From a virus, in IMG/VR virus record IMGVR_UViG_3300020578_000040, positions 17,367-81,366 of that record: a stretch of 64,000 bases of DNA, one strand, 5' to 3'. The translations under genes were made by a program, and so were the position numbers. The notes below the pieces were generated by a model that saw only the letters and a program-made list of their open reading frames with translations, did no database searches and was not told the origin of the DNA. This document shows positions 1 through 30,835 of this stretch, one piece after another (within the stretch, counting starts at the first letter, position 1; each line of letters opens with the position of its first letter).

Positions 1-2
1 CA

Positions 3-98
3 CGAATGCTCGACGAGAAAGAAGCACGAGGCGAACTCGCCCGCGAGTGTGTCGAACTCGACTGGTTCGAGTTGGACGAAGAAGGAGAGATGATCTGA
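3..98 (+). CDS. partial hypothetical protein (5' end outside window)
   Basis: Open frame ...RMLDEKEARGELARECVELDWFELDEEGEMI* ending just before the next ATG. Confidence 0.6.
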   Translation, partial: RMLDEKEARGELARECVELDWFELDEEGEMI

Positions 99-101
99 AC
101 C

Positions 102-335
102 ATGTTCCGTGAACCAATCGAGGAGCCAGAGATGACCAAACTCAACCCCCAGGAGCGAGCCCTGCTCATCCTGAACAACGCCAAGCGTGACATCACCAAC
201 ATCATGGCTCTCCCCATGGAGGACTACGAGGTGATCGAACGGCAACTACGTGACTCGATCGCGTGGCTCATGTCGGGAAGCCGGCACAGGCCTCTGATCC
301 GCGTCGCCTTGACAAAGGGCGAAGAGCCCTTCTAA
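102..335 (+). CDS. hypothetical protein
   Basis: 77-aa ORF, GGAG upstream, GC3-rich codons. Confidence 0.7.
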   Translation: MFREPIEEPEMTKLNPQERALLILNNAKRDITNIMALPMEDYEVIERQLRDSIAWLMSGSRHRPLIRVALTKGEEPF

Positions 336-377
336 CATCAACCAACAGCAACACCCACCTATAGAAAGGAACTACAA

Positions 378-587
378 GTGGAAGCAACAGAAACCAAGAA
401 GAAGATCACCGATACGAACCTCGATGAGTTTAAGCACCGAATGGGCACCATCGACGTGGAGGGACTGATCGTCTCGATCACCGTGACGGACGCTCGATTC
501 CGCTACGGACACATCGACCTTAAGGTCACGCCCATCTCGGGCCGTGGCGAGCGTTGGGTCGAGAGCACCAAGGTGACTCTGATCTAA
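378..587 (+). CDS. hypothetical protein
   Basis: ACCTATAGAAAGGA RBS before the GTG start. Confidence 0.8.
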   Translation: MEATETKKKITDTNLDEFKHRMGTIDVEGLIVSITVTDARFRYGHIDLKVTPISGRGERWVESTKVTLI

Positions 588-815
588 TCAGAACAGAGTT
601 AGAGACATGTCAGGGGGGTTGTCTTTCAGATCAACACAGGTCTGACAGGCAACCCCGCCGATCATCTTCAGCATCTTCACATCGCCGGCATTGAGTTTGC
701 CCTTCTTCGTGATGCGGGTATAGCCCTCGATGCGCAGCCACACGTCCTTCTCAATCCGAAGAATGTCGCGGCCACACAGGTCGCACTGATACAGCGGGGG
801 AAGATGTCCGTCCAT
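588..815 (-). CDS. small Zn-binding hypothetical protein
   Basis: CDLC...CQTC motifs; stop abuts the convergent gene. Confidence 0.65.
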   Translation of the reverse strand: MDGHLPPLYQCDLCGRDILRIEKDVWLRIEGYTRITKKGKLNAGDVKMLKMIGGVACQTCVDLKDNPPDMSLTLF

Positions 816-831
816 CGCTCAATCGTATCGA

Positions 832-1064
832 AGCCCCGCACTCAACTCAAGACGGAAGCCCCGCTTTCCCAGGGGAGGAGTCTGTCTAGCGGGGCTGCGA
901 ATCGCTCGATCCTTACGGGGCTGCGGCGCGTAACCGAGGCCCTCGACGCCGGCCACCAACCGCGCGTATCCGACACCCGAGCACCGCGCGTATCCTGAAC
1001 CGCGCGTATGCGCACGCACGGTAGGCACATGGGCGCGTATGCGCTCGCGCGCGCGTGTGCGTGT
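832..1064. repeat. non-coding element A: nested AGCCCCGC/GCGGGGCT boxes plus CGCGCGTAT repeats
   Basis: Boxes at 832, 857, 888, 916; CGCGCGTAT at 961, 985, 1001; CACGGTAGGCACATG at 1017-1031. Confidence 0.8.
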
Positions 1065-1090
1065 TCCTCTCTCCCCCCTCCACGGAGCGT

Positions 1091-1253
1091 CGATTTGACA
1101 CGCTCACTACGGTCTGATAGGTTCAGTGTTGTCGGGGAAACCGACACCCCCGAATCCCCTCCACGGAGCGTCGATTTGACACGGCACACTGTGGGTGATA
1201 GGTTCGGGGTTGTCGGGGAAACCTGACGCTACCTACTACAGAAAGGAATCATC
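1091..1253 (+). promoter_or_regulatory. two tandem sigma-A-type early promoters, each followed by a stem-loop
   Basis: TTGACA-17-TAGGTT at 1095/1118 and 1176/1199; TGTCGG...CCGACA-type hairpins; ACCTACTACAGAAAGGA leader. Confidence 0.85.
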
Positions 1254-1775
1254 ATGATTTGTCGTTCATGCGACACGCCCGCAGTGGGCAAGAGTGCCTA
1301 CTGCTCCACTCACCGCGCCGAGGCACGGGCCGCGTGGAAGGCCAAGATCAGCGACGAGGCCGAGGCCCGCAAGGCCCGCAAGGCCGGTCACGCCGAACTC
1401 TGGTCGCGCGCCGTTCAGGCCGGTATCAAGGCGTGGCACGAAGCCATCCCCACCCCCATGCTCGTGGGCACGGCGAAGGGTCTGTTCGACGACTCGTTCG
1501 ACGAGACCAAACCCGTGTACCACGTGAGCGAGGGCGTGTGCGGTTTCGCGTCGCTCGTCGTGAAGCCCGCGAACTCGTCGTTCGCTCACTGGCTCAAGGC
1601 CAACGTGCGCACGAGCAAGCACTACGGCGGTGGCCTCTCCGTGTGGTCGTCCGTCATCGTGCCGGAGGACGCGCGCAGTCAGTCCTACGAGCGCAAGGAC
1701 GCGGCCATGCGCGCCGTGGCCGAGGTGCTCCGCGAGGCCGGTATCAAGGCCTCGTGCTGGAGCAGGCTCGACTGA
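1254..1775 (+). CDS. conserved phage hypothetical protein
   Basis: Strong RBS; N-terminal CxxC...C..H; GVCGFA and QSYERK...SRLD motifs recalled from phage early proteins. Confidence 0.85.
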   Translation: MICRSCDTPAVGKSAYCSTHRAEARAAWKAKISDEAEARKARKAGHAELWSRAVQAGIKAWHEAIPTPMLVGTAKGLFDDSFDETKPVYHVSEGVCGFASLVVKPANSSFAHWLKANVRTSKHYGGGLSVWSSVIVPEDARSQSYERKDAAMRAVAEVLREAGIKASCWSRLD

Positions 1776-1810
1776 GCGAGGGCGGGGGGCGCAAGCCCCC
1801 CACTCCCCCT

Positions 1811-1882
1811 CGATTTGACAGACCCACCTACCGCTGATAGATTCAGTGGTGGGAGCAATACCCCAACCAAGAAAGAGGAACA
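1811..1882 (+). promoter_or_regulatory. early promoter cassette
   Basis: CGATTTGACA-17-TAGATT, hairpin, AAAGAGGA RBS. Confidence 0.8.
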
Positions 1883-2248
1883 ATGACCATCACCAACATC
1901 ACGGGAACCGTGCTCATCGGACACGTGGGCGTGGACTCCGGCCAACTCATGATCTGCGACCCGTGCTACATCAAGGCCGACGACTGGGCCGACCAGCCGT
2001 ACGCCCCCGCAAACGCCGTGGACGGCAAGTACCCGTTCACCTACAACGGCGCGTGTGGCGCGACGCTCAATGAGGACAGTGCTGGGCAGTTGGGCACGTT
2101 CGATACCGGCATCGCGTTCGCATCGGGCTACGGCGACGGCACCTACCCCGTGTACGCCACGTACGTCGATGGGCGCATCGCCAGTGTCGAGATCGTGCTC
2201 ATCAGCGAGGACGAGGACGACGAGGACGAGGAGGAGTACCTCCTCTGA
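1883..2248 (+). CDS. DUF4241-like protein
   Basis: VDSGQLMICDP and SGYGDGTYPVY motifs; acidic tail. Confidence 0.75.
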   Translation: MTITNITGTVLIGHVGVDSGQLMICDPCYIKADDWADQPYAPANAVDGKYPFTYNGACGATLNEDSAGQLGTFDTGIAFASGYGDGTYPVYATYVDGRIASVEIVLISEDEDDEDEEEYLL

Positions 2249-2322
2249 TTTGACAGCGACCCCTGCCCCTGATAGATTCAGGGGTGGGGGAAGCAATACC
2301 CATCAGCAACAGAAAGGAAATC
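2246..2322 (+). promoter_or_regulatory. early promoter cassette
   Basis: TTGACA(2250)-17-TAGATT(2273); AGAAAGGA RBS. Confidence 0.8.
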
Positions 2323-2598
2323 ATGACCACCATCACCACCATCAAGCAACGGAACATCGACGCCGGCCACTACTTCTTCGACACAAAGGCCATGCGGTTC
2401 TTCAACAGTCGCGTGAGTCGCACCACCTACGGCGACTTCTTCGTGACCAGCGAGAAAGGCCCCGACAAGGTGCGCCGGTACACGGTGCGCTACAGCGACC
2501 CCGCCACCGGCCACATCAACACGGTCGGAGAGTTCCAGCAGTTCGACACGCTGTGGGGCGCGCTCGCGGAAGCGCGACGCCTCTACCTCGCGATCTGA
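2323..2598 (+). CDS. conserved phage hypothetical protein
   Basis: ATG after AGAAAGGA; FFDTKAMRFFNSRV motif. Confidence 0.8.
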   Translation: MTTITTIKQRNIDAGHYFFDTKAMRFFNSRVSRTTYGDFFVTSEKGPDKVRRYTVRYSDPATGHINTVGEFQQFDTLWGALAEARRLYLAI

Positions 2599-2840
2599 TC
2601 GTGCGCTCGTTGTCGGCTCCGTGGCTCTGGTCGTTCGTCGTCGTGTACGAAGGACGCCCAGAGTCGAGGTTCCGGTTTGGCTCCCCCTGCCGGCTTGTGC
2701 GTTCCGTTGATCTTGCCGTGCATGTGTTACTGCCCGAACTTCTGACACCGCATCTTCCGATCCTGGCGTGCTACCTCCGTTCGACTTCCCCTAGATGGGG
2801 TCGAGCGTGGCGTCGCTGGTAGACCCAAATGGCCAGTTGC

Positions 2841-2927
2841 TGATTTGACAACCTGTCCCTGCCACCACTAGGATTAGTGGTGGTGGGGGCAACCCAACCA
2901 AATACCTACTACAGAAAGGAATCCCCA
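2841..2927 (+). promoter_or_regulatory. early promoter cassette
   Basis: TTGACA(2845)-18-TAGGAT; GCAA-loop hairpin; TACCTACTACAGAAAGGA. Confidence 0.8.
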
Positions 2928-3392
2928 ATGGGACTCGATCAGTACCTACACGCAAAGAAATACACCTCGCCCGCCGAATGGCGACCCGAGGCCGAGCGCA
3001 AGGCTTACGCCGACATCATGAAGGCGGTGCAAGTCAGCGAGTTCATGGATGACCACTTGCCCTCCGCAACCGTCGAAGTGATGGTGGCCTACTGGCGCAA
3101 GCAGAACGCCATCCACAAGTGGTTCGTGGACAACCATCAGGGTGGCGAGGACGACTGCCGTGAGTCCTACGTCGGACGTCAGGGGCTGGAAAGCCTGCGC
3201 GACGTCTGTCGCGAGGTGCTGGCCGACCACTCGAAGGCCGACGAACTCCTGCCCACGGAGTCCGGGTTCTTCTTCGGTGGCACGGAGTACGACAAGTGGT
3301 ACTTCGATGGGCTGGCCTACACGGTCGAGCGTATCGAGAAGTTGCTCACCATGCCCGACGACTGGGACTTCTACTACCAGTCATCGTGGTGA
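2928..3392 (+). CDS. conserved phage hypothetical protein
   Basis: MGLDQYL...YWRKQNAIHKWF...GFFFG...YYQSSW signature. Confidence 0.85.
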   Translation: MGLDQYLHAKKYTSPAEWRPEAERKAYADIMKAVQVSEFMDDHLPSATVEVMVAYWRKQNAIHKWFVDNHQGGEDDCRESYVGRQGLESLRDVCREVLADHSKADELLPTESGFFFGGTEYDKWYFDGLAYTVERIEKLLTMPDDWDFYYQSSW

Positions 3393-3400
3393 CCCGCTCA

Positions 3401-3428
3401 GGGGTCGGTCTCTTCGGAGGCCGACCCC
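3401..3428 (+). other. stable intergenic hairpin with C(UUCG)G tetraloop
   Basis: GGGGTCGGTCTC-TTCG-GAGGCCGACCCC; no U-tract. Confidence 0.7.
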
Positions 3429-3463
3429 ACCATCATCTACAAACACAGAAACAGGAGAATGAA

Positions 3464-3628
3464 ATGACACTCACCGAATGCGACGTCCAGCGGATCGAAG
3501 ACCTGCTGAAGGAACTCCCCGCCATGATCGAAGAGCATGGATACCCGTATGCGCTAGGCGGTGCTGAGTATTGGCTGAAGCGCATCGTCGAATTGTCCGC
3601 GCACCAGAAGAAAGGAATTGGGCAATGA
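3464..3628 (+). CDS. hypothetical protein (54 aa)
   Basis: AGGAG RBS; ATGA overlap with whiB. Confidence 0.7.
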   Translation: MTLTECDVQRIEDLLKELPAMIEEHGYPYALGGAEYWLKRIVELSAHQKKGIGQ

Positions 3629-3849
3629 ACAACGAGGAAGCCAAGTGCAAGGGCAAGGGCAAAATCTTCTTCGCCCCTCACGCAGAGCGACCCCAGGCCC
3701 GCGTCCGTCGCGAGGCCATCGCCATCGCCCTCTGCCTGTCGTGCCCACTCGTCGATGAGTGTCGAGTGGCTGGCGCGAATGAGGAGCACGGCATCTGGGG
3801 TGGCACCACCGAGCGCGACCGCGGAATGGTCAAGGAGCGAGCCCGCTAA
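3625..3849 (+). CDS. whiB: WhiB-family transcription factor
   Basis: C...CxxC...C cysteines and GIWGG turn motif. Confidence 0.9.
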   Translation: MNNEEAKCKGKGKIFFAPHAERPQARVRREAIAIALCLSCPLVDECRVAGANEEHGIWGGTTERDRGMVKERAR

Positions 3850-3864
3850 ATAGCCAGCCATTAT

Positions 3865-3880
3865 CCGAACAAATGTTCGG
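3865..3880. promoter_or_regulatory. putative LexA (SOS) box, actinobacterial/Gram-positive type
   Basis: CCGAAC-AAAT-GTTCGG matches CGAAC-N4-GTTCG. Confidence 0.55.
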
Positions 3881-3923
3881 GTGTTGCTGGATGACGGCCG
3901 GCGTTCTCGGTTAGGGTGTGCTC

Positions 3924-3995
3924 GACGCACAACCTCCATGTGTGTCCGAGAGCCCCGCCGTTTCTTTCCTCCTTTCTGGACGGCGGGGCTTCTCG
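3924..3995 (+). ncRNA. candidate small RNA with two anti-Shine-Dalgarno hairpin loops
   Basis: GACGCACA-ACCTCCA-TGTGTGTC and AGCCCCGCCGTT-TCTTTCCTCCTTTCTG-GACGGCGGGGCT; G-U pairs favour the + strand. Confidence 0.45.
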
Positions 3996-4003
3996 TATTC
4001 TGG

Positions 4004-4217
4004 AGCCCCGCACACTGCGCTGCCCTGGAGCCCCGCTCGCACTCGATCCAGCGGGGCTCGCGCGGCCACGGACCAGCGGGGCTGCGGCGTTCGCGCGTAT
4101 GTCTTACGCGGCCTCACGATTCGCGCGTATGTAATGGGCCGGCAGATTCGCGCGTATGTCTCCCACTTCGCGCGTATGTAGGCCACGGTAGGCACATGAC
4201 GATCCACGCGCGCGTAA
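4004..4217. repeat. non-coding element B (paralog of element A)
   Basis: Boxes at 4004, 4029, 4050, 4075; four TTCGCGCGTATGT; CACGGTAGGCACATG at 4184-4198. Confidence 0.8.
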
Positions 4218-4234
4218 TCTTTGTGGTGTCCCCT

Positions 4235-4529
4235 CGATTTGACAGAGGGTGGCAGGGCTGATAGGTTTGGGTTTGTCGGGGCAACTCGACACCAAGCCAA
4301 CTCGATTTGACCAGCCCTGTATGGTCTGATAGAGTTCGGTTTGTCGGGGCAACTCGGCAGGCCTGCTATGACGCACTATCTAAGTGACTCGCCCGATTTG
4401 ACGGTGACTCACCCACCTGATAGATTCAGGTTTGTCGAGTTCTCCCGACACCTAGCCGATTCGATTTGACAGGCTCACACCTGTCCGATAGATTCGGAAA
4501 CGCAATACCTACTACCGAAAGGAATACCA
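4235..4529 (+). promoter_or_regulatory. array of four tandem early promoters with stem-loops
   Basis: -35 at 4239, 4307, 4398, 4466, each 17 bp from a TAG(G/A)(T/G)T -10. Confidence 0.85.
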
Positions 4530-4919
4530 ATGTCCCTTACCATCGACCGTGCTATTGCCGATCTCTTGGTTCTCCGTGACAAGGAGAAGGAGATCGAGCA
4601 GGCCAAGCGAGACACGGAGGCTCTGCTCGTCGCCCTGTTCGACGACGCAGGAATCGACCACTACGAGACCACCGACAAGGTGCGTGTCGCCGTGGAGAAC
4701 CGTCCCCGTCGCTCATTCGACATGGACAGTCTGCTGGCGAACCTGCCGGCGACCGTCCTCAACATGGTGCTGAAGCAGACCGTCGATTCGTCGGCGTTCG
4801 ACAGTGCCGTGGAGACCGGCCTCGTCCCGACCCCCGTGGTCGAGCAGGCCGTCACGATCTCGTATTCCACGCAAGTGCGTGTGTACGGGCAGAAGGGTGT
4901 TCGGGGCGACCGCTCCTGA
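4530..4919 (+). CDS. hypothetical protein
   Basis: GAAAGGA RBS; N-terminal coiled coil. Confidence 0.8.
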   Translation: MSLTIDRAIADLLVLRDKEKEIEQAKRDTEALLVALFDDAGIDHYETTDKVRVAVENRPRRSFDMDSLLANLPATVLNMVLKQTVDSSAFDSAVETGLVPTPVVEQAVTISYSTQVRVYGQKGVRGDRS

Positions 4920-4935
4920 CACCCCTCACAACCTG

Positions 4936-4962
4936 ACATTTGGTCATGTCAGGCTCCTTTCC
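4936..4962 (+). terminator. putative terminator hairpin
   Basis: CCTGACAT-TTGGTC-ATGTCAGG followed by CTCCTTT. Confidence 0.45.
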
Positions 4963-4981
4963 GCATGACCCCTCACCCCGT

Positions 4982-5064
4982 CGATTTGACAGGGGTGGGG
5001 GGAATGTGGGAGACTTCATTCGGAGCCAACCACTCCACCTACCTACTACCGAAAGGCAAACTCA
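4982..5064 (+). promoter_or_regulatory. early promoter cassette (variant -10)
   Basis: CGATTTGACA-18-GAGACT; ACCTACCTACTACCGAAAGG leader. Confidence 0.65.
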
Positions 5065-5790
5065 ATGACCACCACCAATACCGCCATGCCTCAGTGCTGG
5101 CAAGATGTACACGACTGCCTCGCCTCGGGTGTCGATCGCCTCGTGCTGTTCGGCCCTCCGGGGACTGGCAAGACCTTCGCCGGTCTCACGATGGGCGATG
5201 TAACCACCGGAGCGTTCCGCGTCGTCTGTAACGAGGAGATGACCTCGGCCGATGTGACCGGACACTTCCAGCCCACGGGCAACGAGTGGACTTGGAACGA
5301 GGGCGCGGTTCTCCGTGCTTGGAAGGGCAACGGCTCTCACGGCGGTCGCGTCGTGGCAGACGAGATCGACCGTGCGTCGGGCGATGTGTTGTCGCTCCTG
5401 CTCGCCATGTTCGACTCGCCGGAGTCGGCCTCTTGGACGCACCCTGCGACCAAGCAGACCTTCCGTCCCCTCCCCGGATTCAGCGTCATCATGACGACGA
5501 ACATCGAGGACATGAGGGAACTCCCGACCGCTCTCAGGGATCGGTTCCCCGTGGCTATTCGTATCAACCGCCCACACCCGAACGCCCTGTTGGCCCTGCC
5601 GGAGGACTTGCGTGAGGTGGCCTCAGCCAGCGTGGACGCAGACGACGAGCGACGGTACTCGATTCGTACCTTCCAGTCATACGCCAAGTTGCGTGGAACG
5701 CTGGGTTCGGAGCGAGCCGCGACGCTGGTGTTCGGCAAGAACGCCAAGTCCATCATGGACGCCATCAAGATCGAGGAGGTCTCCAAGTGA
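5065..5790 (+). CDS. MoxR/CobS-like AAA+ ATPase
   Basis: Walker A GPPGTGKT, Walker B VVADEIDR, sensor TTN, ALRDRF arginine finger. Confidence 0.9.
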   Translation: MTTTNTAMPQCWQDVHDCLASGVDRLVLFGPPGTGKTFAGLTMGDVTTGAFRVVCNEEMTSADVTGHFQPTGNEWTWNEGAVLRAWKGNGSHGGRVVADEIDRASGDVLSLLLAMFDSPESASWTHPATKQTFRPLPGFSVIMTTNIEDMRELPTALRDRFPVAIRINRPHPNALLALPEDLREVASASVDADDERRYSIRTFQSYAKLRGTLGSERAATLVFGKNAKSIMDAIKIEEVSK

Positions 5791-7256
5791 CCACCAAGAT
5801 CAACGCTGGTGTGGTCACCCCCAAGGGGGTGGCCATGCCGGAGTGGCTCACTCGTGAGGACTCCCCCCAAGGCCCGTGGACTGTCAAGGAAGGCAACGCC
5901 ACTCGTGGCGAGGCGTTCACCAACCGTATCGAGCGTCTCATGACGGTTCCCTACGGCGACGACGACCTCTCCCGTGCGGTTCGCGCCCACGAGATGATGC
6001 ACGCCAAGGTGTCCCCGGAGTCGATGGCTTCGTTCGACGGGTTCTCGATTTCGCCGGAGGCCATTCGGGCTTCGGAGGAATTTCGTGTGAACACGCTCTG
6101 CTCGCTCGCCGGCTTCGACATGGACAATCTGCGTGACGGGTCGGAGTCACAGACTGGCAAGCGACTGGCCGAGAACAAGGACTGGAACAACACCGTCCTG
6201 TTCATCGCGGCTACCGCCGGAACCAAGGCCTGCAAGGATGTGCTTCGTGGTATGCGTACCGTGAGTCCCGAAATGGCTGACAAGGCCAAGCGTGTCGAGA
6301 AGGCTCTGCTCGATTCGTGGAAGTCCGAGATCAAGCGTTTCGGCCCTGTGCGTGACTCTCGTGCGGTCACCTACGCTCGTCGTGAGATGGCTAGCACCAC
6401 GCCCGTGGTCTACAAGGCGGACGGCACGCCGTCTCGTCCCGTCAATCACGACACCGTTCTTGCCGAGGGCGAGCGCATCCTCCCTGAGGGGGCGAAGTTC
6501 ACGCTCAGGTTTGCTTCGCTCGTGGACGCTCTACTCAAATACGACGACTCCGTGGACGGACACGAAGGCGACGGCGAGCCGAGCGACGAGGAACTCGACG
6601 CTGTGACCAAGACGGCCGGTGGCAAGACTTGGGCGCGACTCATCGTCGATCGTTCGGTTCCGCTGACTCGTCGAGTCAAGGGCAACCTCGGTCGTCGGCG
6701 TATGGCCACCAACATCGGTGTCTCGCCTCGTCGAATGGAGCGACTGCTGACCGACCCCGACAAGCGTGTGTTCGACCGCACGATCAAGGGGCAGGGCGGT
6801 GTCGTTCTCATCGACCAGTCCGGCTCGATGAGGCTGAACGACGACGATGTGATGGCTCTCGTGAACGAGGCTCCCGGCTGTGTGGTCGTGGGCTACTCGC
6901 ACCGACCCAACTCGTCGGGTGTCCCGAATGTGTGGATTCTCGCCGACCGTGGCAAGGTCTGTAGCGCGGTTCGCTCCGGCAACGGTGGCAACGGCGTGGA
7001 CTACCCTGCCTTGGTGTTCGCCAACAAACTTCGCAAGAAGGGCGAGCCGTTGGTGTGGGTCTGCGACGGTCATGTCACGGTGTCCGATGACGGGTTCGCA
7101 CCTGCTCCGCTTCGCAAGCAGGTGGCCGGCTTCGTTCGCAAGAATCAGGTTCACATGGTTCCGACCGTGGGTGAGGCTGTGACTGCGTTGCGACGCGCCA
7201 AGTCGGGCGTTCGTCTCACGACCAAGATCGTCGGTTCGGAACTCTCCGCGTCCTGA
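5787..7256 (+). CDS. VWA-domain protein with HExxH motif (CobT-like ATPase partner)
   Basis: HEMMH; MIDAS DQSGS; coupled to the AAA gene. Confidence 0.8.
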   Translation: MTTKINAGVVTPKGVAMPEWLTREDSPQGPWTVKEGNATRGEAFTNRIERLMTVPYGDDDLSRAVRAHEMMHAKVSPESMASFDGFSISPEAIRASEEFRVNTLCSLAGFDMDNLRDGSESQTGKRLAENKDWNNTVLFIAATAGTKACKDVLRGMRTVSPEMADKAKRVEKALLDSWKSEIKRFGPVRDSRAVTYARREMASTTPVVYKADGTPSRPVNHDTVLAEGERILPEGAKFTLRFASLVDALLKYDDSVDGHEGDGEPSDEELDAVTKTAGGKTWARLIVDRSVPLTRRVKGNLGRRRMATNIGVSPRRMERLLTDPDKRVFDRTIKGQGGVVLIDQSGSMRLNDDDVMALVNEAPGCVVVGYSHRPNSSGVPNVWILADRGKVCSAVRSGNGGNGVDYPALVFANKLRKKGEPLVWVCDGHVTVSDDGFAPAPLRKQVAGFVRKNQVHMVPTVGEAVTALRRAKSGVRLTTKIVGSELSAS

Positions 7257-7307
7257 CCGCGAGAGGGGTGGGGCAGGGTTTGTTCTCCTTGTCCCCACCC
7301 CACCCCT

Positions 7308-7394
7308 CGATTTGACCCAGCCTCACCGCTGGTGTAGGATCGAGTTTGTGGGGAAACCCACACCTATCAAGTACCTACCTACAAAGGAGTCATC
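7308..7394 (+). promoter_or_regulatory. early promoter cassette
   Basis: TTGACC(7312)-17-TAGGAT; TGTGGG-GAAA-CCCACA hairpin; TACCTACCTACAAAGGAG. Confidence 0.8.
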
Positions 7395-8171
7395 ATGCCG
7401 AACTGGGCATACAACTCGATGACCGTCCGCTCGACTTCCGAGTCCAAGCAGACTGCCATCCACGACCTTCAGGAGTTCCTGGAGTTCATCAAGGTCACCG
7501 ACCCCGAGACTGGGGCTATCAGTTACGACCTGACCAAAGCACACCCTATGCCCGAGGCACTCATGGGCACTCGCTCACCTGTCCCCTACTCGCCTGAACC
7601 GCACCCCAATTGGGTCGAGATGTTGGCGGAGGGACAGATGACGCAGGAGCGTTTCGACGAACTCTGTGCCGAGAACATCAAGTTCTACGAGGCTGGGCAG
7701 AAGGCATACGCCGAGACCGGCTACACCGACTGGTACGACTGGGCGAACAAGGAGTGGGGAACCAAGTGGGCACCTCGCTTCGAGCACAACGACCCCGAGT
7801 TGGACGAGGAGCACGAACAGGTCTCGATGTACTACGAGACTGCGTGGTCGCCGGCAGATGGGCTGGTTTCCAAGATGAGCGAACGCTTCCCGAACTTGGT
7901 GTTCGAGGTGTCCGTGACAGAGGAAGCAAACCTGTATGTCGGTGCGTCGCACTTCCACAACGGCGTGGCGACGATGTTCTACACCTCGTTCGATGACAAG
8001 GATTTGCCCGACCGCTACACGAAGCGGTACGCCGAGATTGTCGAACACGAGGCGAAAGACGACATCGACTGGGATTCCTACTTCGAGAAGATGAGTGACC
8101 TCCAGTCCGATGTTCTCGAATACTGCGAGAATCAGATTGCGCTCATGGCCTCATTTGAGGTGGGGTCATGA
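7395..8171 (+). CDS. DUF1281/YubB-like ferredoxin-fold protein
   Basis: MPNW start, WYDW...WGTKW and ETAWSP motifs. Confidence 0.8.
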   Translation: MPNWAYNSMTVRSTSESKQTAIHDLQEFLEFIKVTDPETGAISYDLTKAHPMPEALMGTRSPVPYSPEPHPNWVEMLAEGQMTQERFDELCAENIKFYEAGQKAYAETGYTDWYDWANKEWGTKWAPRFEHNDPELDEEHEQVSMYYETAWSPADGLVSKMSERFPNLVFEVSVTEEANLYVGASHFHNGVATMFYTSFDDKDLPDRYTKRYAEIVEHEAKDDIDWDSYFEKMSDLQSDVLEYCENQIALMASFEVGS

Positions 8172-8533
8172 GTGCCGACCTGACTATCGCCATGGCTCCG
8201 ATTGTCAAGACCAAGGACGAGGCAATCATCAAACTCAAATCCATGGAACCCGAGGTTCTGCTCCATGTTCTATCCGAGTATTTCGCCCGTGAGTTTGATG
8301 AGGCGACCGACGAGGAGGAGTATGCCGAGGCGGTCTCCTATGTCATCGGCAAGATCGAAGAGGTGTACTCGTACTACGAGCATGGCTCTCGTGACACGGA
8401 GGTGCGGAGGATCAACGGAACCGACTGGTTGATTACCGGAGGTTTGTCGTGGGGCGATGACCCAACGGACGCATACGAGCCGGTGTCCATCGTTTCAGGA
8501 CTACAACTGACGCACGACGAGGAGAGTTCATGA
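8168..8533 (+). CDS. hypothetical protein
   Basis: ATGA-coupled; ITGGLSWGDDPT motif. Confidence 0.75.
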   Translation: MSADLTIAMAPIVKTKDEAIIKLKSMEPEVLLHVLSEYFAREFDEATDEEEYAEAVSYVIGKIEEVYSYYEHGSRDTEVRRINGTDWLITGGLSWGDDPTDAYEPVSIVSGLQLTHDEESS

Positions 8534-8652
8534 CAATCCGAGTGTTCGACCCGAACCCGACATACGACGAATGGTGCGAGGCGAACGGCCTCGACCCTGA
8601 CAACGACGAGACCTACAACGCTTACTGCGAATGGAGAAGCAACAACCGATGA
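8530..8652 (+). CDS. small acidic hypothetical protein (40 aa, not in ORF track)
   Basis: MTIRVFDPNPDTYDEWCEANGLDPDNDETYNAYCEWRSNNR*; ATGA overlaps at both ends. Confidence 0.7.
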   Translation: MTIRVFDPNPTYDEWCEANGLDPDNDETYNAYCEWRSNNR

Positions 8653-8990
8653 CCACGCACAACTACAACTCGATTCCCGAGGAGTTCCGGATGTACGTCC
8701 AGCAACCGCTCGACGACTCCATGCTCGATGAGCGGAAATACTCACTCAAGATCACGGACGAGATGGAACACTCCCGTGGGATCGCATGGGTGGGCAGTCT
8801 CACGGCCGGCGACAAGATCATTGCCACGGTCGAGAACGCCGGCCACGGTGGTGCCAACGACTACATCATCGCCAACGACTCCCTGTGGGATGTGTTCGTC
8901 GAGGATGCGTACACTGCGTATGGCAATCGAGGCGAGGCCAAGGACTCGCTCGTCCAACTGATCGACGTACTCACAGCGGTGACGGTGTGA
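8649..8990 (+). CDS. hypothetical protein
   Basis: ATGA-coupled; VENAGHGG motif. Confidence 0.75.
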   Translation: MTTHNYNSIPEEFRMYVQQPLDDSMLDERKYSLKITDEMEHSRGIAWVGSLTAGDKIIATVENAGHGGANDYIIANDSLWDVFVEDAYTAYGNRGEAKDSLVQLIDVLTAVTV

Positions 8991-9151
8991 AACCCACGCT
9001 CGACCAAGAAGTAACAGCACTCGATTCCTTGCTGGCCAAGATCGATTTCGCCCTGAGCGAGATCGGGCACAAGACGGTCGTGGAGGCACCAGTCATGGTG
9101 GACTTACTACTCGACATTCGCTTCTTGGCAACAACAGTCAAGGACACCTGA
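8987..9151 (+). CDS. hypothetical protein (54 aa)
   Basis: GTGA overlap; last gene before the terminator. Confidence 0.65.
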   Translation: MKPTLDQEVTALDSLLAKIDFALSEIGHKTVVEAPVMVDLLLDIRFLATTVKDT

Positions 9152-9169
9152 TCACTGGTGGTAGGTGAC

Positions 9170-9208
9170 GCAGAGGGGCGGGCCGAAAGGCTCGCCCCTT
9201 TGTGCTTT
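9170..9208 (+). terminator. intrinsic terminator between convergent genes
   Basis: AGGGGCGGGCC-GAAA-GGCTCGCCCCT followed by TTGTGCTTT. Confidence 0.75.
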
Positions 9209-9476
9209 ACTTGCGTAGAAAGTTGTCGAGTGTTCGCCAGTACCGCCACGCAACGCCGGCACCGACCAATGGCAACAGCCGTGGCTGGACAGCCAGCACC
9301 TCAGCCTCGTTGAGGTTGAGGAGAATCGCGTAGGCCAGCACGCCCTCGAAGGCACCGGTCACCGCAGCGAGGATCAGTCCGACTGGCGTATTGACCCGAC
9401 GCACGAACACCCGTTCATCGTCATCGTCCCACTCGTACTCGACTTCGCGCTTGTCGGTTGAACGCAACTGCTTCAC
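9207..9476 (-). CDS. small membrane protein
   Basis: Two hydrophobic segments; AAAGGAAAGG RBS. Confidence 0.7.
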   Translation of the reverse strand: MKQLRSTDKREVEYEWDDDDERVFVRRVNTPVGLILAAVTGAFEGVLAYAILLNLNEAEVLAVQPRLLPLVGAGVAWRYWRTLDNFLRK

Positions 9477-9847
9477 TGTGCCTTTCCTTTCAGGATTTGA
9501 TGGACGCGCTGACGCGACAAACCTACTCGATCCGCGATCTGCTGTAGGCTCAGTCGCATCCCGCGCAGCGTGTGGACATCACGGTGCATAGCGATGTTCA
9601 TCTTCGCCCCAGGCGCACGAGCCTCCCACTCCCATGAAGGGATGTGCTCGAAGGCCTGAGCCTGCTCGATGGTCAAGAGCCCCGCTCGGTAGCGACTCTT
9701 GATGTAACTGGCCCACCGGCCGATGGCGACTCGTTCGCCGGCCGCACCGCGCGTATTGTGCGACAGCGGGATATTTGTGTGGCCATTCTCTCGCGCGTAT
9801 TTCTCGATCATGTGAACGCGCGTATGGAACTGTTCGTCTCGGGTCAT
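9473..9847 (-). CDS. helicase-associated (HA) domain + HTH DNA-binding protein; candidate repressor
   Basis: Y..ENGH..IP...IGRW....SRY..GLL...W.W resembles the HA domain; C-terminal SLQQIADRVGLSRQRVHQIL HTH. Confidence 0.75.
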   Translation of the reverse strand: MTRDEQFHTRVHMIEKYARENGHTNIPLSHNTRGAAGERVAIGRWASYIKSRYRAGLLTIEQAQAFEHIPSWEWEARAPGAKMNIAMHRDVHTLRGMRLSLQQIADRVGLSRQRVHQILKGKAQ

Positions 9848-9883
9848 GTCAATAAGTTAGCCCACGGTGCGCGTATGTGTCAA
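9848..9883 (-). promoter_or_regulatory. leaderless sigma-A promoter of the HA-HTH gene with an operator-like site in the spacer
   Basis: TTGACA (9883-9878)-18-TAACTT (9859-9854)-6 nt-ATG; GCGCGTAT within the spacer. Confidence 0.7.
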
Positions 9884-9901
9884 GGTTTGCGCGGATTGTT
9901 T

Positions 9902-9987
9902 CGATTTGACGGCCAGCCATTTATCTGATAGATTTGGCTTTGGCGGTTGAGAGATTGCCATTTAGTACCTACTACCAAAGGAGAGTT
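9902..9987 (+). promoter_or_regulatory. early promoter cassette
   Basis: TTGACG(9906)-17-TAGATT; TGGCGGTT-GAGA-GATTGCCA hairpin; TACCTACTACCAAAGGAG. Confidence 0.8.
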
Positions 9988-10182
9988 ATGGGAACCCCCC
10001 ATGAAGATACAGAGTTGCGCAACGCCGACGGCGATAACTGTTGCGAGTGCGGTGAGGTCATGCTCGCCATGTTCGGCAATGGGCCGGTTCGTTTCGAGGA
10101 TGGCTTTGCGCACGAGCAGTGCGCCCTCGATGCGGAGGCGTTCGACGCGGATGCTTATTTCGCAAAGTTCGAGGAGGCGTGA
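9988..10182 (+). CDS. small Cys/His protein
   Basis: CCEC...HEQC; strong RBS. Confidence 0.7.
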   Translation: MGTPHEDTELRNADGDNCCECGEVMLAMFGNGPVRFEDGFAHEQCALDAEAFDADAYFAKFEEA

Positions 10183-10466
10183 TCGTGGGTATCGACCCCT
10201 GCACATACTGCGGTGAGTCCACCGCCCTCGGGGCCACACGCCACGATGGATCACTGATTGGCAAGTTCATCAACCGCATTCCCGTGGATGACGGCTGGGG
10301 CTGTGCCGAGTGTTCTGGATTCAAGTGCGACGAGTGCGAGAAGCAGATTTATCTCGACCACGAAGTCCGCGTCGATTTCACCGACCCCATCACCGGCAAG
10401 TACCGCTACGGCAACTACCACGAAGAGTGCTACTCGGCCGAGATACATGGGCCGTGTGAGTACTGA
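10179..10466 (+). CDS. Zn-finger hypothetical protein
   Basis: Three CxxC plus HxxC; GAGGAGG RBS. Confidence 0.75.
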   Translation: MIVGIDPCTYCGESTALGATRHDGSLIGKFINRIPVDDGWGCAECSGFKCDECEKQIYLDHEVRVDFTDPITGKYRYGNYHEECYSAEIHGPCEY

Positions 10467-10547
10467 TTTGATCCATTCGCTTACAGGTGATAGGATTGCC
10501 TCAGTGGCAGGCGACTGCCACCACCTACTAACTACAGAGGAGTACCA
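10464..10547 (+). promoter_or_regulatory. early promoter cassette
   Basis: TTGATC-17-TAGGAT; GTGGCAG-GCGA-CTGCCAC hairpin. Confidence 0.75.
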
Positions 10548-10988
10548 ATGAAGTACATCGTCCACGAAGGAACCGGCACCATCATCAGTGCCGACGAGTG
10601 CGTCATCGTCAGTGTCCCCAGGGAAATCTTGGATGCCATGAGCGGTGACGACTACTTCGACGATCAGCAGGTTCTCGACCTCGCAGTCGAAGCCGGCAAG
10701 CCCATCAACCTGACCGACATGACGTACGGCAACACCATGGCATTCTCGCCTTCCGCTCTCCGTGAGGAGGCTCGGGAGATGATCGATGCCGAGTTGTTCG
10801 GCACCGAGGAGAGTTGGCACGAAGCACTCGTGTGGTGTGCGAACACCGCCACCGACGACGAACTGAATGCCGTTGCGTCATACATCCTCGATGACGATGA
10901 TCTGTGGAGAACCTTCCGCGTCAGCGTCACCGACGGCCTGCTTCAGGGCCTGATCTGGCACAAAGAATCACTGAAAGGAAAGTCGTGA
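10548..10988 (+). CDS. acidic hypothetical protein
   Basis: GAGGAG RBS; 146 aa. Confidence 0.8.
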   Translation: MKYIVHEGTGTIISADECVIVSVPREILDAMSGDDYFDDQQVLDLAVEAGKPINLTDMTYGNTMAFSPSALREEAREMIDAELFGTEESWHEALVWCANTATDDELNAVASYILDDDDLWRTFRVSVTDGLLQGLIWHKESLKGKS

Positions 10989-11230
10989 ACTCGACACATC
11001 TCACCCACATATTCACACTCCCGGAGCGTTCGCTCACGTCGAGGATCGAGAACGGAGAGGAAGTGATCGTTGGCATCCACATTGGTAACAACAACTTCAT
11101 CACCATTCATCTCTCGGCCAACGCGAACGGCGATCTCGACTACGAGGTGGTGGAGGATGCCAACCCCGACGTTGGTTTCGCCGGCACCTATCCCGAGTTC
11201 TTCGATTTGACCGCTATCAGCACCAACTGA
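10985..11230 (+). CDS. hypothetical protein
   Basis: GAAAGGA RBS; GTGA overlap. Confidence 0.7.
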   Translation: MNSTHLTHIFTLPERSLTSRIENGEEVIVGIHIGNNNFITIHLSANANGDLDYEVVEDANPDVGFAGTYPEFFDLTAISTN

Positions 11231-11294
11231 TAGGATTGCCTCAGTGGCAGGCGACTGCCACCACATACTTACTACCTACTACCGAAAGGCAAAC
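11203..11294 (+). promoter_or_regulatory. early promoter cassette
   Basis: TTGACC(11207)-18-TAGGAT; 37 bp identical to 10488-10524. Confidence 0.8.
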
Positions 11295-11516
11295 ATGAAA
11301 CAGCATCACTTCGTGGTCTGCGCTACGTTCGATGAGAACGGCGACCCACATTTCGAGATCACCGATTCCATCTGTGATCCCACGAAGCCCGTGTGGGACA
11401 CGGAGTCAGAGATGTGGGGTCGCGTATCAGCAGGGGATGAGGATGACGACTTCCTCCTCCTGACCGCCCTGAAGGAAGCCCTGACCGAAGCAAATCTCAC
11501 AAAGGAGACATCATGA
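11295..11516 (+). CDS. hypothetical protein
   Basis: ATG after TACCTACTACCGAAAGG. Confidence 0.7.
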   Translation: MKQHHFVVCATFDENGDPHFEITDSICDPTKPVWDTESEMWGRVSAGDEDDDFLLLTALKEALTEANLTKETS

Positions 11517-17143: not shown

Positions 17144-17212
17144 ATGGATGTTTTACTTCTAACAATCTTTTGCATCGCCTCCTTCCTTATCGTTGACAGG
17201 ATCACCAAATGA
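17144..17212 (+). CDS. 22-aa hydrophobic micropeptide (not in ORF track)
   Basis: MDVLLLTIFCIASFLIVDRITK*; AGGT upstream; ATGA overlap with the next gene. Confidence 0.45.
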   Translation: MDVLLLTIFCIASFLIVDRITK

Positions 17213-17373
17213 ATCGCCCCGGCCGCAAGCCAACCAACAACCCAACGCTGACAATCAAACTGACGCCGAAGATTAAGCGACATCTTATTGAGGTTGCCAG
17301 CCTTAACGACATGTCGATCACCGAGTACCTGGTGACGCTGATCGAGCGCGACGCCGGCCAGTCACTACAGTAA
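17209..17373 (+). CDS. ribbon-helix-helix protein (54 aa, not in ORF track)
   Basis: PGRKP...LTIKL...KRHL...A....MSITEYLVTLIERD. Confidence 0.75.
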   Translation: MNRPGRKPTNNPTLTIKLTPKIKRHLIEVASLNDMSITEYLVTLIERDAGQSLQ

Positions 17374-17393
17374 GTAGTTGTAAAGTAATAACT

Positions 17394-17747
17394 ATGGGTA
17401 GGCAGCCACAAGTAGCCACCACAACTGGGACTGTCTACTTACAGTTACGAGTCCCAGGCTGGATGAAGAACAAGATCATCGAGCGGGCGGACGAACTCGA
17501 CACGAGTGTGAACGCTGTGCTCCTGTCCGCGGTGAAGAAGTGGCTCGAAGAGGACGGAGCGCTGCCGGCCCCACCCGTAGCGACGAGGCCACTACCGACG
17601 ACGGCTGACCAGATTCGAGCCTGGGCCACCGGTGAGAAGATCACCGGCCCCTGCGGTCAGACGAAGTGCCCCGCGCTGGACGAAGAAGGCCGCTGGCAGT
17701 CAGACGGAATGGGCTTCTGTACGCACTGCGGAATCCGGGTGCAATAG
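17394..17747 (+). CDS. ribbon-helix-helix protein with Zn finger
   Basis: LQLRVP.WMK..I..RA.ELDTSVNAVL; PC...C...CTHC. Confidence 0.75.
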   Translation: MGRQPQVATTTGTVYLQLRVPGWMKNKIIERADELDTSVNAVLLSAVKKWLEEDGALPAPPVATRPLPTTADQIRAWATGEKITGPCGQTKCPALDEEGRWQSDGMGFCTHCGIRVQ

Positions 17748-17758
17748 AATCAGTCGCC

Positions 17759-17842
17759 CCACATTTGCGCGATCGTCATCCACCAATTTCTGTTGAATGA
17801 GTTCCAATGGACTTACTACTCGACCACATTTGCGCGATCGTC
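17759..17842. repeat. 19-bp direct duplication flanking a 46-bp templated insert
   Basis: CCACATTTGCGCGATCGTC at 17759 and 17824; insert matches 29397-29427 and 9099-9115. Confidence 0.9.
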
Positions 17843-18129
17843 GGGCGGATCGGTGTGATCCCCCTCTTGCGCTGCTCGGCGGCCAACTGTCGCGGTGTCA
17901 GCCCTGCCCACACCCCATGCATATCCGCAGGTGGGAACTCCAGCGCGTAGTCCAGGCACAGGTCCTTCACCGGACAATGCTTACATATCTGGCGCGCTTT
18001 GGTGATGTACGTAATGTCCTTATACTCCTTCGGGAACATAAGGTCCGTCTTACCTCGGCAGTTAGCAAGGTGAGTCCATGTGGGTCTTTGTGGGAGCATG
18101 TGGTGGCCGGTGGGGGGTGGTGGTGACAA
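17776..18129 (-). CDS. whiB: WhiB-family transcription factor (C-terminus altered by the insert)
   Basis: W...ANCRG...F...ICKHCPV...CLDYAL...GVWAGLT; start may be ATG 18099. Confidence 0.9.
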   Translation of the reverse strand: MSPPPPTGHHMLPQRPTWTHLANCRGKTDLMFPKEYKDITYITKARQICKHCPVKDLCLDYALEFPPADMHGVWAGLTPRQLAAEQRKRGITPIRPTIAQMWSSSKSIGTHSTEIGG

Positions 18130-28581: not shown

Positions 28582-29394
28582 TCAATCTCGTCTCATGATT
28601 TTAAACAAAGATGTTTTTTCTGGTTTGGCTAATTCAGAGTCTACATCTCTTTGCAATTTTTTGTATTTACTTTTCTGGTTGAGCGGCATGAATGCCCCGC
28701 CGAACCCTCTGTGCTTGAGGAGGTCGTAAGACCTTGAATTGCCCCACAGGATTTCCGATTCCTTGCTTCTCTTAAATGGAATAACGTGCCACATGGGGCG
28801 CCCTATTTCAAGTTCGAAAGGCTCGTCCCCCAGCACACTAATGACCATATGGGCGGAGTGATAGTAGTCTGTATTGACCACCGCCGGAAGCATTGTGTAA
28901 TTTGGATCGGGGTCCCAGAGCGGGGGCAGAAACAGGGATGACCAACCCGGTGGAGTTTTTATTTTCCAGGGATTGATGACCTTGATGTAGTTTGATTGTT
29001 GAAGTTTACGTGCCCTGGAAACAGGGCATTCTCCTGTTTGCGAATATGAGAAACCCTCAATCAAAAATTGTTGACAGTCGCGCGTCAGGTCAAACTGTGC
29101 TTCCCAATTCCTGCCGTTCAATGACGGACGAATCATCAATTTGGCCCACAGTGGAATGGTAAAGCCTGTTGCAAGATAATCAGACGTGCCGGAGCACCGC
29201 TTGATGCTTCCCTCGGCGCCGCTGAGTTCCTTCCACCACTGAGGCCAATTTCCTGTATTGACGTATGGGCGACATGAGTCGTCCATTAAATTAGGGTCAG
29301 GACAAGACAGCAACACTTGATTCTTTTTTAATTTAGGCAAATCATCAAAAACTTCTGGATTAACTATTTGCAGTTGCTTTGAGCGCCTGGGCAT
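28582..29394 (-). CDS. conserved phage hypothetical protein (DUF6065-like)
   Basis: P.WWK...KRC...DYL..GF.IPLW...NPW.IKTPPGWSSLF...VVNTD. Confidence 0.7.
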   Translation of the reverse strand: MPRRSKQLQIVNPEVFDDLPKLKKNQVLLSCPDPNLMDDSCRPYVNTGNWPQWWKELSGAEGSIKRCSGTSDYLATGFTIPLWAKLMIRPSLNGRNWEAQFDLTRDCQQFLIEGFSYSQTGECPVSRARKLQQSNYIKVINPWKIKTPPGWSSLFLPPLWDPDPNYTMLPAVVNTDYYHSAHMVISVLGDEPFELEIGRPMWHVIPFKRSKESEILWGNSRSYDLLKHRGFGGAFMPLNQKSKYKKLQRDVDSELAKPEKTSLFKIMRRD

Positions 29395-30835
29395 GGTCCA
29401 CCAATTTCTGTTGAATGAGTTCCAATGATATTTGTGAAATATTCTTTCTAGAGGACTGACGAGAATTGTATGCGTCTAGTTGTATTGATGCAATCTCCTT
29501 GTTGAGCACCCCCTGGCCCTGGGCCACATGCCACAAATGTGCTGCACCAAATAATTCAAATCCCGTTGAGGGTATGTCGTGATGCTCAGGGCACCTGGTG
29601 TTCCACAATTCAAGAAGGTGCGCCAACAACTCCGGTTTTTCTGCCTTTTGCTGTTCCGCCCACATCGGTGTGTCGTCTCTGTCTGAAATATAGTGGAGTG
29701 AAATCATGCATAGAATATTTTCCATAATAGAATCCATGACACGGTGATATTCCTTGACTCCGTATGTTTTCTCACGCGAGAATGTTGGAAGGTATGAGCA
29801 AATAAGCCTGGCCTGTTGAATCGTAGTAGAAATTGATGTTGCCTCAAGCGGTTCAACAAATCCTGCAGCCAATCCAACTGCGACACAATTGTTTTTCCAA
29901 GTTGTTTTGAAGTACCCCGATTTGAAAGAAAGCGTTTTCGCTGGCTCTATTTCAAACCCGTGAGTGTCTGAAGCCTCTTTAACCGCCTCATCGACCGAGC
30001 AGAAATCTGATGAAAAAACATAACCATTACCGCGGCGTTTCTGGGTTGGAATTTCCCACATCCAACCATTTTTTAATGCCCTAGCGCGTGTATATGGGCG
30101 TATCTGACCCGACGGGCACGATGGCGTTGGGAACGCGACTGCGCTATCACATGGGAGATACTTGCGATATGAAACAAAATTATTTTCCGAAATTGTGCTC
30201 AATATTTCACGACTGAACCCTGTTGCGTCGATAAAAAAGTCACCCTCAATTACACCCGGGTGCGAATCAATTTGTATGTGCTGAATAAACCCATGCTCAT
30301 CTGCTCTGACATCTGTTACATTCGCATCAATAAAATAAATCTGCCTCTGTTTTGCAATCTGCGTCAGAAACAAGTTCAGTTTAAATGTATCGAAATGATA
30401 TTGATTTGTTCCGAGATGCGTCTTGTCTCCGGCATCAATAATTTTGTTATCTATCAAACCGCGCCACGAGAATACGCTCGTTAGGGGCCAGCCATTCTCT
30501 AGCGCATGGGCGTAGCCGCCCCAGAAAGTCCCCGCACTTAAGCCCGTCCCACCCACGCTATGGAAATAGTCTGGCGTATGATTCGTCCAATTTTCGTATC
30601 TGATGCCGTACTTGTGCGTAATGTCGGCATTTCTTATCATGTCATGAACATCGATGCCGATGATTTCTTGAAAAAGACGCCAATGCTCTGTGGAGCCCTC
30701 GCCCACGCCCACGATGCCTATCGCGCTAGAGGAAACAACAACAACCTTATAGTCTGTAAAAAGAGTTTTTATTATAAGTGCGGTTACTAATCCTGCGGTC
30801 CCCGAACCAGCGACCACTATTGTCTTGTTTTTCAT
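29360..30835 (-). CDS. flavin-dependent tryptophan halogenase family (PrnA-like)
   Basis: GSGTAG, GVGEGS, catalytic K (HKYGI), WMWEIP, FVEPLEATS. Confidence 0.9.
   Translation of the reverse strand: MKNKTIVVAGSGTAGLVTALIIKTLFTDYKVVVVSSSAIGIVGVGEGSTEHWRLFQEIIGIDVHDMIRNADITHKYGIRYENWTNHTPDYFHSVGGTGLSAGTFWGGYAHALENGWPLTSVFSWRGLIDNKIIDAGDKTHLGTNQYHFDTFKLNLFLTQIAKQRQIYFIDANVTDVRADEHGFIQHIQIDSHPGVIEGDFFIDATGFSREILSTISENNFVSYRKYLPCDSAVAFPTPSCPSGQIRPYTRARALKNGWMWEIPTQKRRGNGYVFSSDFCSVDEAVKEASDTHGFEIEPAKTLSFKSGYFKTTWKNNCVAVGLAAGFVEPLEATSISTTIQQARLICSYLPTFSREKTYGVKEYHRVMDSIMENILCMISLHYISDRDDTPMWAEQQKAEKPELLAHLLELWNTRCPEHHDIPSTGFELFGAAHLWHVAQGQGVLNKEIASIQLDAYNSRQSSRKNISQISLELIQQKLVDHAQALKATANS

Follow-up and report, generated by a model that had tools for sequence, protein, structure and literature searches.

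At its 3′ end the whiB gene of an uncultivated freshwater actinophage carries an insertion totalling 65 bp, in which a 19 bp tandem duplication surrounds 46 bp of filler matching two distant loci of the same genome. This is most likely a single, recent and tolerated scar of serial template switching (FoSTeS/MMBIR-like), a reading to which we would give a probability of roughly 0.7. The structure of the insertion, its donors, the ancestral state and the presence of the allele in many independent assemblies are shown directly, whereas the mechanism of switching, the sequence of steps and the neutrality of the change are inferred.

The window (i.e. the whole stretch of DNA that was analysed, 64,000 nucleotides) comprises bases 17367-81366 of an 81,366 bp IMG/VR viral contig, for which the CheckV completeness is ~54%. 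Complete relatives with the same WhiB are 154-172 kb in length, and the source phage has a genome of about 150 kb. The runs in which the stretch occurs, among them 24 of a lake time series, come without exception from lake or freshwater metagenomes, and none is an RNA run. The presence of WhiB (PF02467) suggests that the host is an actinobacterium. Near-identical DNA was not found among cultured phages, and a protein search returned only distant WhiB matches of <42% identity. We note that each complete relative (G001-G005, relatives of L007, L017, L022, L036 and L074) has a second, distant WhiB-like gene with 34-40% identity. The 'direct terminal repeats' of 123-127 bp in G001-G005 resemble the k-mer overlaps left by an assembler in circular or permuted genomes.

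The insertion and its two donors

The features discussed are as follows, in coordinates of the window.

9099..9115, + strand: donor 2, native sequence within a small gene, where it codes for MVDLLLD (from the open reading frames)
17394..17747, + strand: convergent neighbour, whose product resembles Arc/ribbon-helix-helix proteins and has a Cys-rich tail (weak match to the PHROG Arc-like repressor, E=3e-4; open reading frames)
17750..17779, − strand: what is left of the former whiB end (MTIAQMWGD-stop); the ATG overlaps the new TGA
17759..17777, no strand assigned: copy B of the 19 bp duplication, now beyond the new stop codon
17776..18129, − strand: whiB in its derived form, with 15 foreign residues at the end (Pfam Whib PF02467, E=2e-13, residues 18-81)
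17778..17823, no strand assigned: 46 bp filler, i.e. an untemplated A (17778), the donor-1 copy and the donor-2 copy; not in any relative
17779..17809, + strand: 31 bp donor-1 copy, identical to 29397-29427 (31/31)
17808..17824, + strand: 17 bp donor-2 copy, identical to 9099-9115 (17/17), overlapping the 31-mer (TG) and copy A (C)
17824..17842, no strand assigned: copy A of the 19 bp duplication, in frame in whiB, encoding (P)TIAQMW
28582..29394, − strand: gene for a 270-aa protein whose start region adjoins donor 1; ATG and N-terminal frame conserved in relatives
29360..30835, − strand: tryptophan-halogenase-family gene containing donor 1 (Pfam PF04820, E=3e-101)
29397..29427, + strand: donor 1, native sequence from the 3′-terminal codons of the flavin halogenase gene, separated by 2 nt from the ATG of the gene that follows; orthologues at the same position in 8 relatives

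On the + strand the order is copy B, the A at 17778, the 31-mer, the TG overlap, the 17-mer, the C overlap and copy A, and the pairs of 19-mers, 31-mers and 17-mers are all in direct orientation. The duplication and the two exact matches had been reported in a first-pass annotation of the sequence, and every position given there was reproduced both by direct reading and by script. The same annotation described the pieces as joined by microhomologies of 1-2 nt. This holds at two of the junctions (TG at 17808-17809 and C at 17824), but not at 17777/17779, where the overlap is 0 and the single untemplated A (17778) is found. Elsewhere in the window the 31-mer occurs exactly once, where 100 shuffles predict 0.00, and the same is true of the 14 nt of filler outside it (17810-17823; once elsewhere, 0.00 expected in 100 shuffles). 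A chance origin of the donor matches is thus excluded.

Both donors are intact, native coding sequence. The sequence orthologous to donor 1 shows a graded divergence in the 8 relatives, and the copy within whiB is this genome's own version and not theirs. For donor 2, a homologue with 52% identity (L117) retains the motif MVDLLLDIR, in a comparison that leaves aside the 11 kb relative L083, the contig of which starts ~70 bp beyond the donor position. Since the whiB copy is the allele of its own genome and the donors are native, the copying was intragenomic. The repeats, 31+17+19 bp (67 bp), are free of mismatches, against a DNA divergence of 10-20% from the nearest relatives, and the copying is therefore recent. 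At the donor-1 locus the gene for the halogenase-family flavoenzyme overlaps that of the 270-aa protein, which belongs to no known family, by 35 nt (28582-30835), and both genes are conserved in relatives of 25-196 kb.

The consequence for the coding sequence follows from the length, for 65 bp shifts the whiB frame. In WhiB the two terminal residues, GD, give way to 15 unrelated residues, so that the derived protein ends ...TIAQMW followed by SSSKSIGTHSTEIGG and a stop, the TGA arising at the A junction. That a new tail had replaced the end TIAQMWGD-stop, leaving a mini-ORF MTIAQMWGD-stop at 17779-17750, was part of the initial description and is borne out by the list of open reading frames and by reading of the sequence. 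The remnant frame is probably a by-product and not a gene; a GGTGG abuts its ATG directly, leaving no usable spacing.

The assignment of the gene as whiB is secure, with a Pfam score of 51 bits against a cut-off of 23.6 and the four-Cys cluster at residues 24, 50, 53 and 59 of the 117-aa frame. The true start is likely to be the ATG at 18099, because the N-terminus MLPQ(R/K)PTWTHLANC is conserved in relatives. Gene callers place the start at an internal Met at 18039, giving an 87-aa product (P0003) that lacks the first of the four conserved Cys. Exact look-ups using the 107-aa and 117-aa starts gave no match, as callers use the later start.

Presence of the allele in lake metagenomes and the ancestral whiB end

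The source of the contig is a metagenome assembly, and short overlaps at junctions are what chimeric reads look like, so an origin in assembly, amplification or library construction has to be weighed; the first-pass annotation had itself raised an amplification or assembly chimera as an alternative. The junctions were checked in Logan contigs (k=31) from four lake metagenome runs of four samples, of which one is possibly the source sample and three carry no such flag. In each run one contig covers 16800-17808 and a second starts at 17780 and continues rightwards into whiB, with 0 mismatches; the right-hand contig reaches 18800 in one run and is shorter in the other three. The contigs are built of 31-mers present in the reads, so that all three novel junctions are supported in each run. 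The 31-mer itself appears in the four runs as a separate 31-nt node of the graph that is also joined to two contigs of the donor locus. A k=31 graph alone cannot pair the arms across a 31-nt node, and the pairing was therefore taken from protein data. The exact 87-aa product, ending ...STEIGG at the stop of the A junction, is present on 14 contigs of JGI/IMG and ENA. The arms are correctly paired, because the alternative pairing would continue into the flank of the donor and would not end in ...STEIGG.

The junctions are identical in the k=31 contigs of all four runs, each from a different sample, with k-mer depths between 4 and 30, and the exact variant protein is present on 14 contigs in two repositories. 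This leaves the chimera with almost no probability, and overlaps of 0-2 nt are unable to mislead a de Bruijn assembler. The allele is thus real. It should be cautioned that such mosaics in metagenome contigs are not necessarily chimeras. A search of IMG/VR for the junction pattern, from which near-identical records may have been left out, gave no other record. No contig lacking the 65 bp was seen across the four runs; since contigs can hide rare variants, fixation should not be concluded from the missing uninterrupted allele.

In each of the four runs the contig ending at 17808 has ~2.4 times (2.3-2.8 times) the mean k-mer depth of its neighbour starting at 17780. The right-hand side is in fragments in three of the runs, and the contigs of the donor region are intermediate in depth between those to the left and right of the insertion. 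Deletion or duplication between the 31 bp copies was considered as a source of this step, but the four contig depths fit neither model. A boundary of a long terminal repeat at the insertion site was likewise rejected, given that the donor-region contigs have an intermediate and not a single-copy depth. The step could possibly come from co-occurring sister strains that share the k-mers of the left arm.

The ancestral state is seen in relatives. Four syntenic DNA relatives (~80-90% nucleotide identity) have an uninterrupted ...QMWGD-stop. All 80 of the 80 WhiB relatives in IMG/VR end at QMW (QLW in one) plus 2-4 residues, and in the closest protein cluster, with 1-3 differences in the core and >40 contigs, every member ends WGD or WGE. 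Searches of IMG/VR and of metagenome contigs with patterns of the uninterrupted allele found the sister lineage and unrelated genes only. Since all the relatives checked have the short QMW end, the insertion is derived and private to one lineage, and the comparison confirms WGD-stop as the original whiB end, which had been proposed from the sequence of this genome.

The surroundings of the insertion and its possible function

The insertion lies where two arms of the genome converge. Close to the site the rightward arm carries a replication initiator, a helicase loader, a primase-helicase, an HTH protein and two small Arc-like proteins, while the leftward arm starts with whiB and an exonuclease. 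Between the stop of the convergent gene (17394..17747) and the original whiB stop there are 2 nt. The adjacent small ribbon-helix-helix-like genes form a pair at 17209-17747, and the C-terminal Cys-rich segment of the second, CGQTKCP...FCTHCG, is conserved in the sister lineage. That lineage has a spacer of ~125 bp 3′ of whiB (L003:1264-1390, L004:333-460 and the same place in L089), with a promoter-like TTGACA-17-TAAGAT of the type of this phage's early promoters, ~85 nt, and a GC hairpin with a T run. This spacer is a candidate for a small RNA or for an orphan promoter aimed into the convergent gene. The whole of it is missing in the lineage of the window (17748-17752).

The first-pass annotation suggested that the insert might be a nascent trans-acting antisense element. 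The geometry of this proposal stands. The 31-mer, which includes GGTGGA, is a perfect match to a stretch that stops 2 nt short of the conserved ATG at 29394, on its upstream side. The convergent genes are not separated by any predicted terminator, and 31 nt of antisense RNA could be made by + strand read-through. The remainder of the proposal fares less well, as there is no promoter, no structure and no conservation beyond one lineage. Neither a promoter nor a terminator is predicted at the insertion site, and on neither strand does the site fold stably beyond shuffled controls (z-scores of +0.59 and -0.20).

More generally, the insertion might have been kept for a function, either as such an antisense RNA or because the new tail or the 9-codon remnant alters WhiB regulation. 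It is the only allele seen for this lineage, in 14 contigs and 4 runs, but a neutral hitch-hiker would also become fixed in one clonal lineage. The feature is confined to one young lineage, the site offers no promoter, terminator or stable structure, and the remnant ORF has no spaced ribosome-binding site. We therefore regard retention for function as improbable. Still a little less probable is that the scar has since been co-opted, in which case the 31-nt copy, placed where the two convergent transcripts overlap, might tie translation of 28582-29394 either to read-through of the early arm (as antisense) or to the whiB mRNA (as a sense decoy). If this were so, it would capture in nature the birth of a trans-acting regulatory RNA through a template-switch error. 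Among WhiB proteins the C-terminal QMWG motif is strongly conserved, and the replacement of this end could matter; the neutrality of the change is assumed.

The insertion had also been read as the possible footprint of a diversification process, and self-comparison does not support this. In a census of exact repeats of ≥17 nt over 81 kb, the other repeats belong to motif families of promoters, leaders and terminators in the early region, to collagen-like coding sequence or to a tandem repeat. No second orphan repeat or templated insertion was found in the 81 kb record, nor was a second such event found in four complete relatives totalling 648 kb. Two orphan-repeat candidates in relatives, a 36-mer (G005) and a 64-mer (G001), proved to be paralogous coding segments. 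The insertion reads as a one-off scar, and nothing points to a diversification system.

We note in passing the character of the repeat families. Window positions 1-11300 and the upstream part of the record hold dense, near-identical promoter cassettes of the form GATTTGACA-N17/18-GATAGrTTC, together with shared leaders TACCTACTACmGAAAGG, both of them in front of small + strand genes. At 37100-38900 there is a long collagen-like coding repeat with a period of 18 nt (and 9 nt) and at least 31 register-shifted copies.

Origin of the insertion and comparison with known systems

Serial template switching would account for the whole arrangement in a few steps. During replication or repair, a growing 3′ end would have quit the whiB template just past the ...AQMW codons and copied ~15 nt at 9.1 kb. 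It would then have jumped, with a 2 nt overlap, to 29.4 kb, where ~30 nt would have been copied. One untemplated base would have been added before re-entry into whiB 19 bp behind the point of departure. On the other strand the steps could equally have run in reverse. Conflicts of forks or of transcription are plausible at the place where the arms converge. A signature of two donors, return to the origin, a small gain in copy number and junctions of 0-2 nt with one added base has been assigned to iterative template switching, blunt or 1-2 nt junctions being common and the iterative switches setting this replicative route apart from end joining (PMC5120786). The present insertion shows what is expected of a template switch, with intact donors and three consecutive junctions having either 0-2 nt of overlap or one added base. 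A mosaic templated insertion made by template jumping in repair or replication, as first put forward in the annotation, is thus the best reading, its structure and the ancestral end being confirmed.

Other routes could generate parts of this pattern. The very short microhomologies (0, 2 and 1 nt) and the untemplated base also fit end joining, of which overlaps of 0-2 nt with one untemplated nucleotide are typical. From one event it is hard to tell replicative template switching from break repair with synthesis-dependent filler or with capture of fragments, and no polymerase, recombinase or end-joining gene is linked to the event. In its explicit form, repair of a double-strand break by host NHEJ or MMEJ would require staggered nicks 19 bp apart to be filled in, giving the duplication, and two short pieces of degraded phage DNA to be ligated between the ends along with one untemplated base. 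WhiB marks an actinobacterial host, and many actinobacteria carry Ku/LigD. Bacterial MMEJ enzymes with activities like those of Pol theta exist, as outlined in bioRxiv 10.1101/2022.03.14.484287. Against this, end joining requires a 19-nt 5′ stagger and the capture of two tiny fragments (~30 and ~15 bp) in the same orientation, and iterative templated segments are held to be characteristic of replicative switching (PMC5120786). Genes for a reverse transcriptase, PolA (a family-A polymerase) and Ku were not found in the record (~54% complete), so that the lack of Ku, which also speaks against end joining, applies to an incomplete record. Taken together we consider end joining the main rival, unlikely but deserving of more weight than a retained function.

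The direct duplication flanking the insert, and the spacer-like size of the 31 bp segment, could also suggest a mobile element or Cas1-Cas2 integration that has left a target-site duplication. A duplication of 19 bp is longer than the usual target duplications of transposons and shorter than CRISPR repeats (~23-47 bp). The insert joins two unique pieces of coding sequence from this very genome and has no terminal repeats, the composite found no match in IMG/VR and does not recur in the genome, and there is no repeat array. CRISPR integration would be expected to give a single insert of protospacer size, and not 46 bp from two sources. We regard integration of either kind as extremely improbable.

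The insertion can be set beside several known systems. As a member of the phage WhiB family (PF02467) the protein keeps the four Cys and the ...RPT(L/I)AQMWG end up to the W; unlike the other members it is the sole one among >80 relatives with its end swapped for 15 unrelated residues. A conserved protein end can evidently be replaced in one step.

With filler DNA, as outlined for MMEJ of the Pol-theta type, the bacterial G2L4 reverse transcriptase and mycobacterial NHEJ by Ku/LigD, it shares minimal microhomology, an untemplated nucleotide and short copies. It differs from end-joining filler in that the 19 bp duplication demands an extra assumption, and no reverse transcriptase or Ku was found in the ~54% complete record. 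The short-range template-switch mutations outlined in PMC7954356 are also similar, since there a transient switch of the polymerase gives rise to a cluster of changes resembling a complex indel. In that outline the template is nearby and often on the opposite strand, whereas here there are two direct donors 8.7 and 11.6 kb away.

The closest likeness in form is to FoSTeS/MMBIR insertions (PMC5120786), with which it shares short copies of two distant loci with the donors left intact, serial switches with junctions of 0-2 nt or small additions, and a short stretch duplicated where the path re-enters. The difference lies in scale and number, for those involve kilobases in human chromosomes, while this is a single natural event of tens of bases in a phage genome of ~150 kb. 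The insertion, although it is resolved in detail, belongs as an ordinary case to a class of mutation already known, and is not a new system. As a two-donor templated insertion for which donors, junctions, ancestral state and presence in the population are all traceable, it provides a clean natural example, and it indicates that phage genes too are shaped, on the scale of tens of bases, by the complex template-switch mutations that are best known from structural variants in humans.
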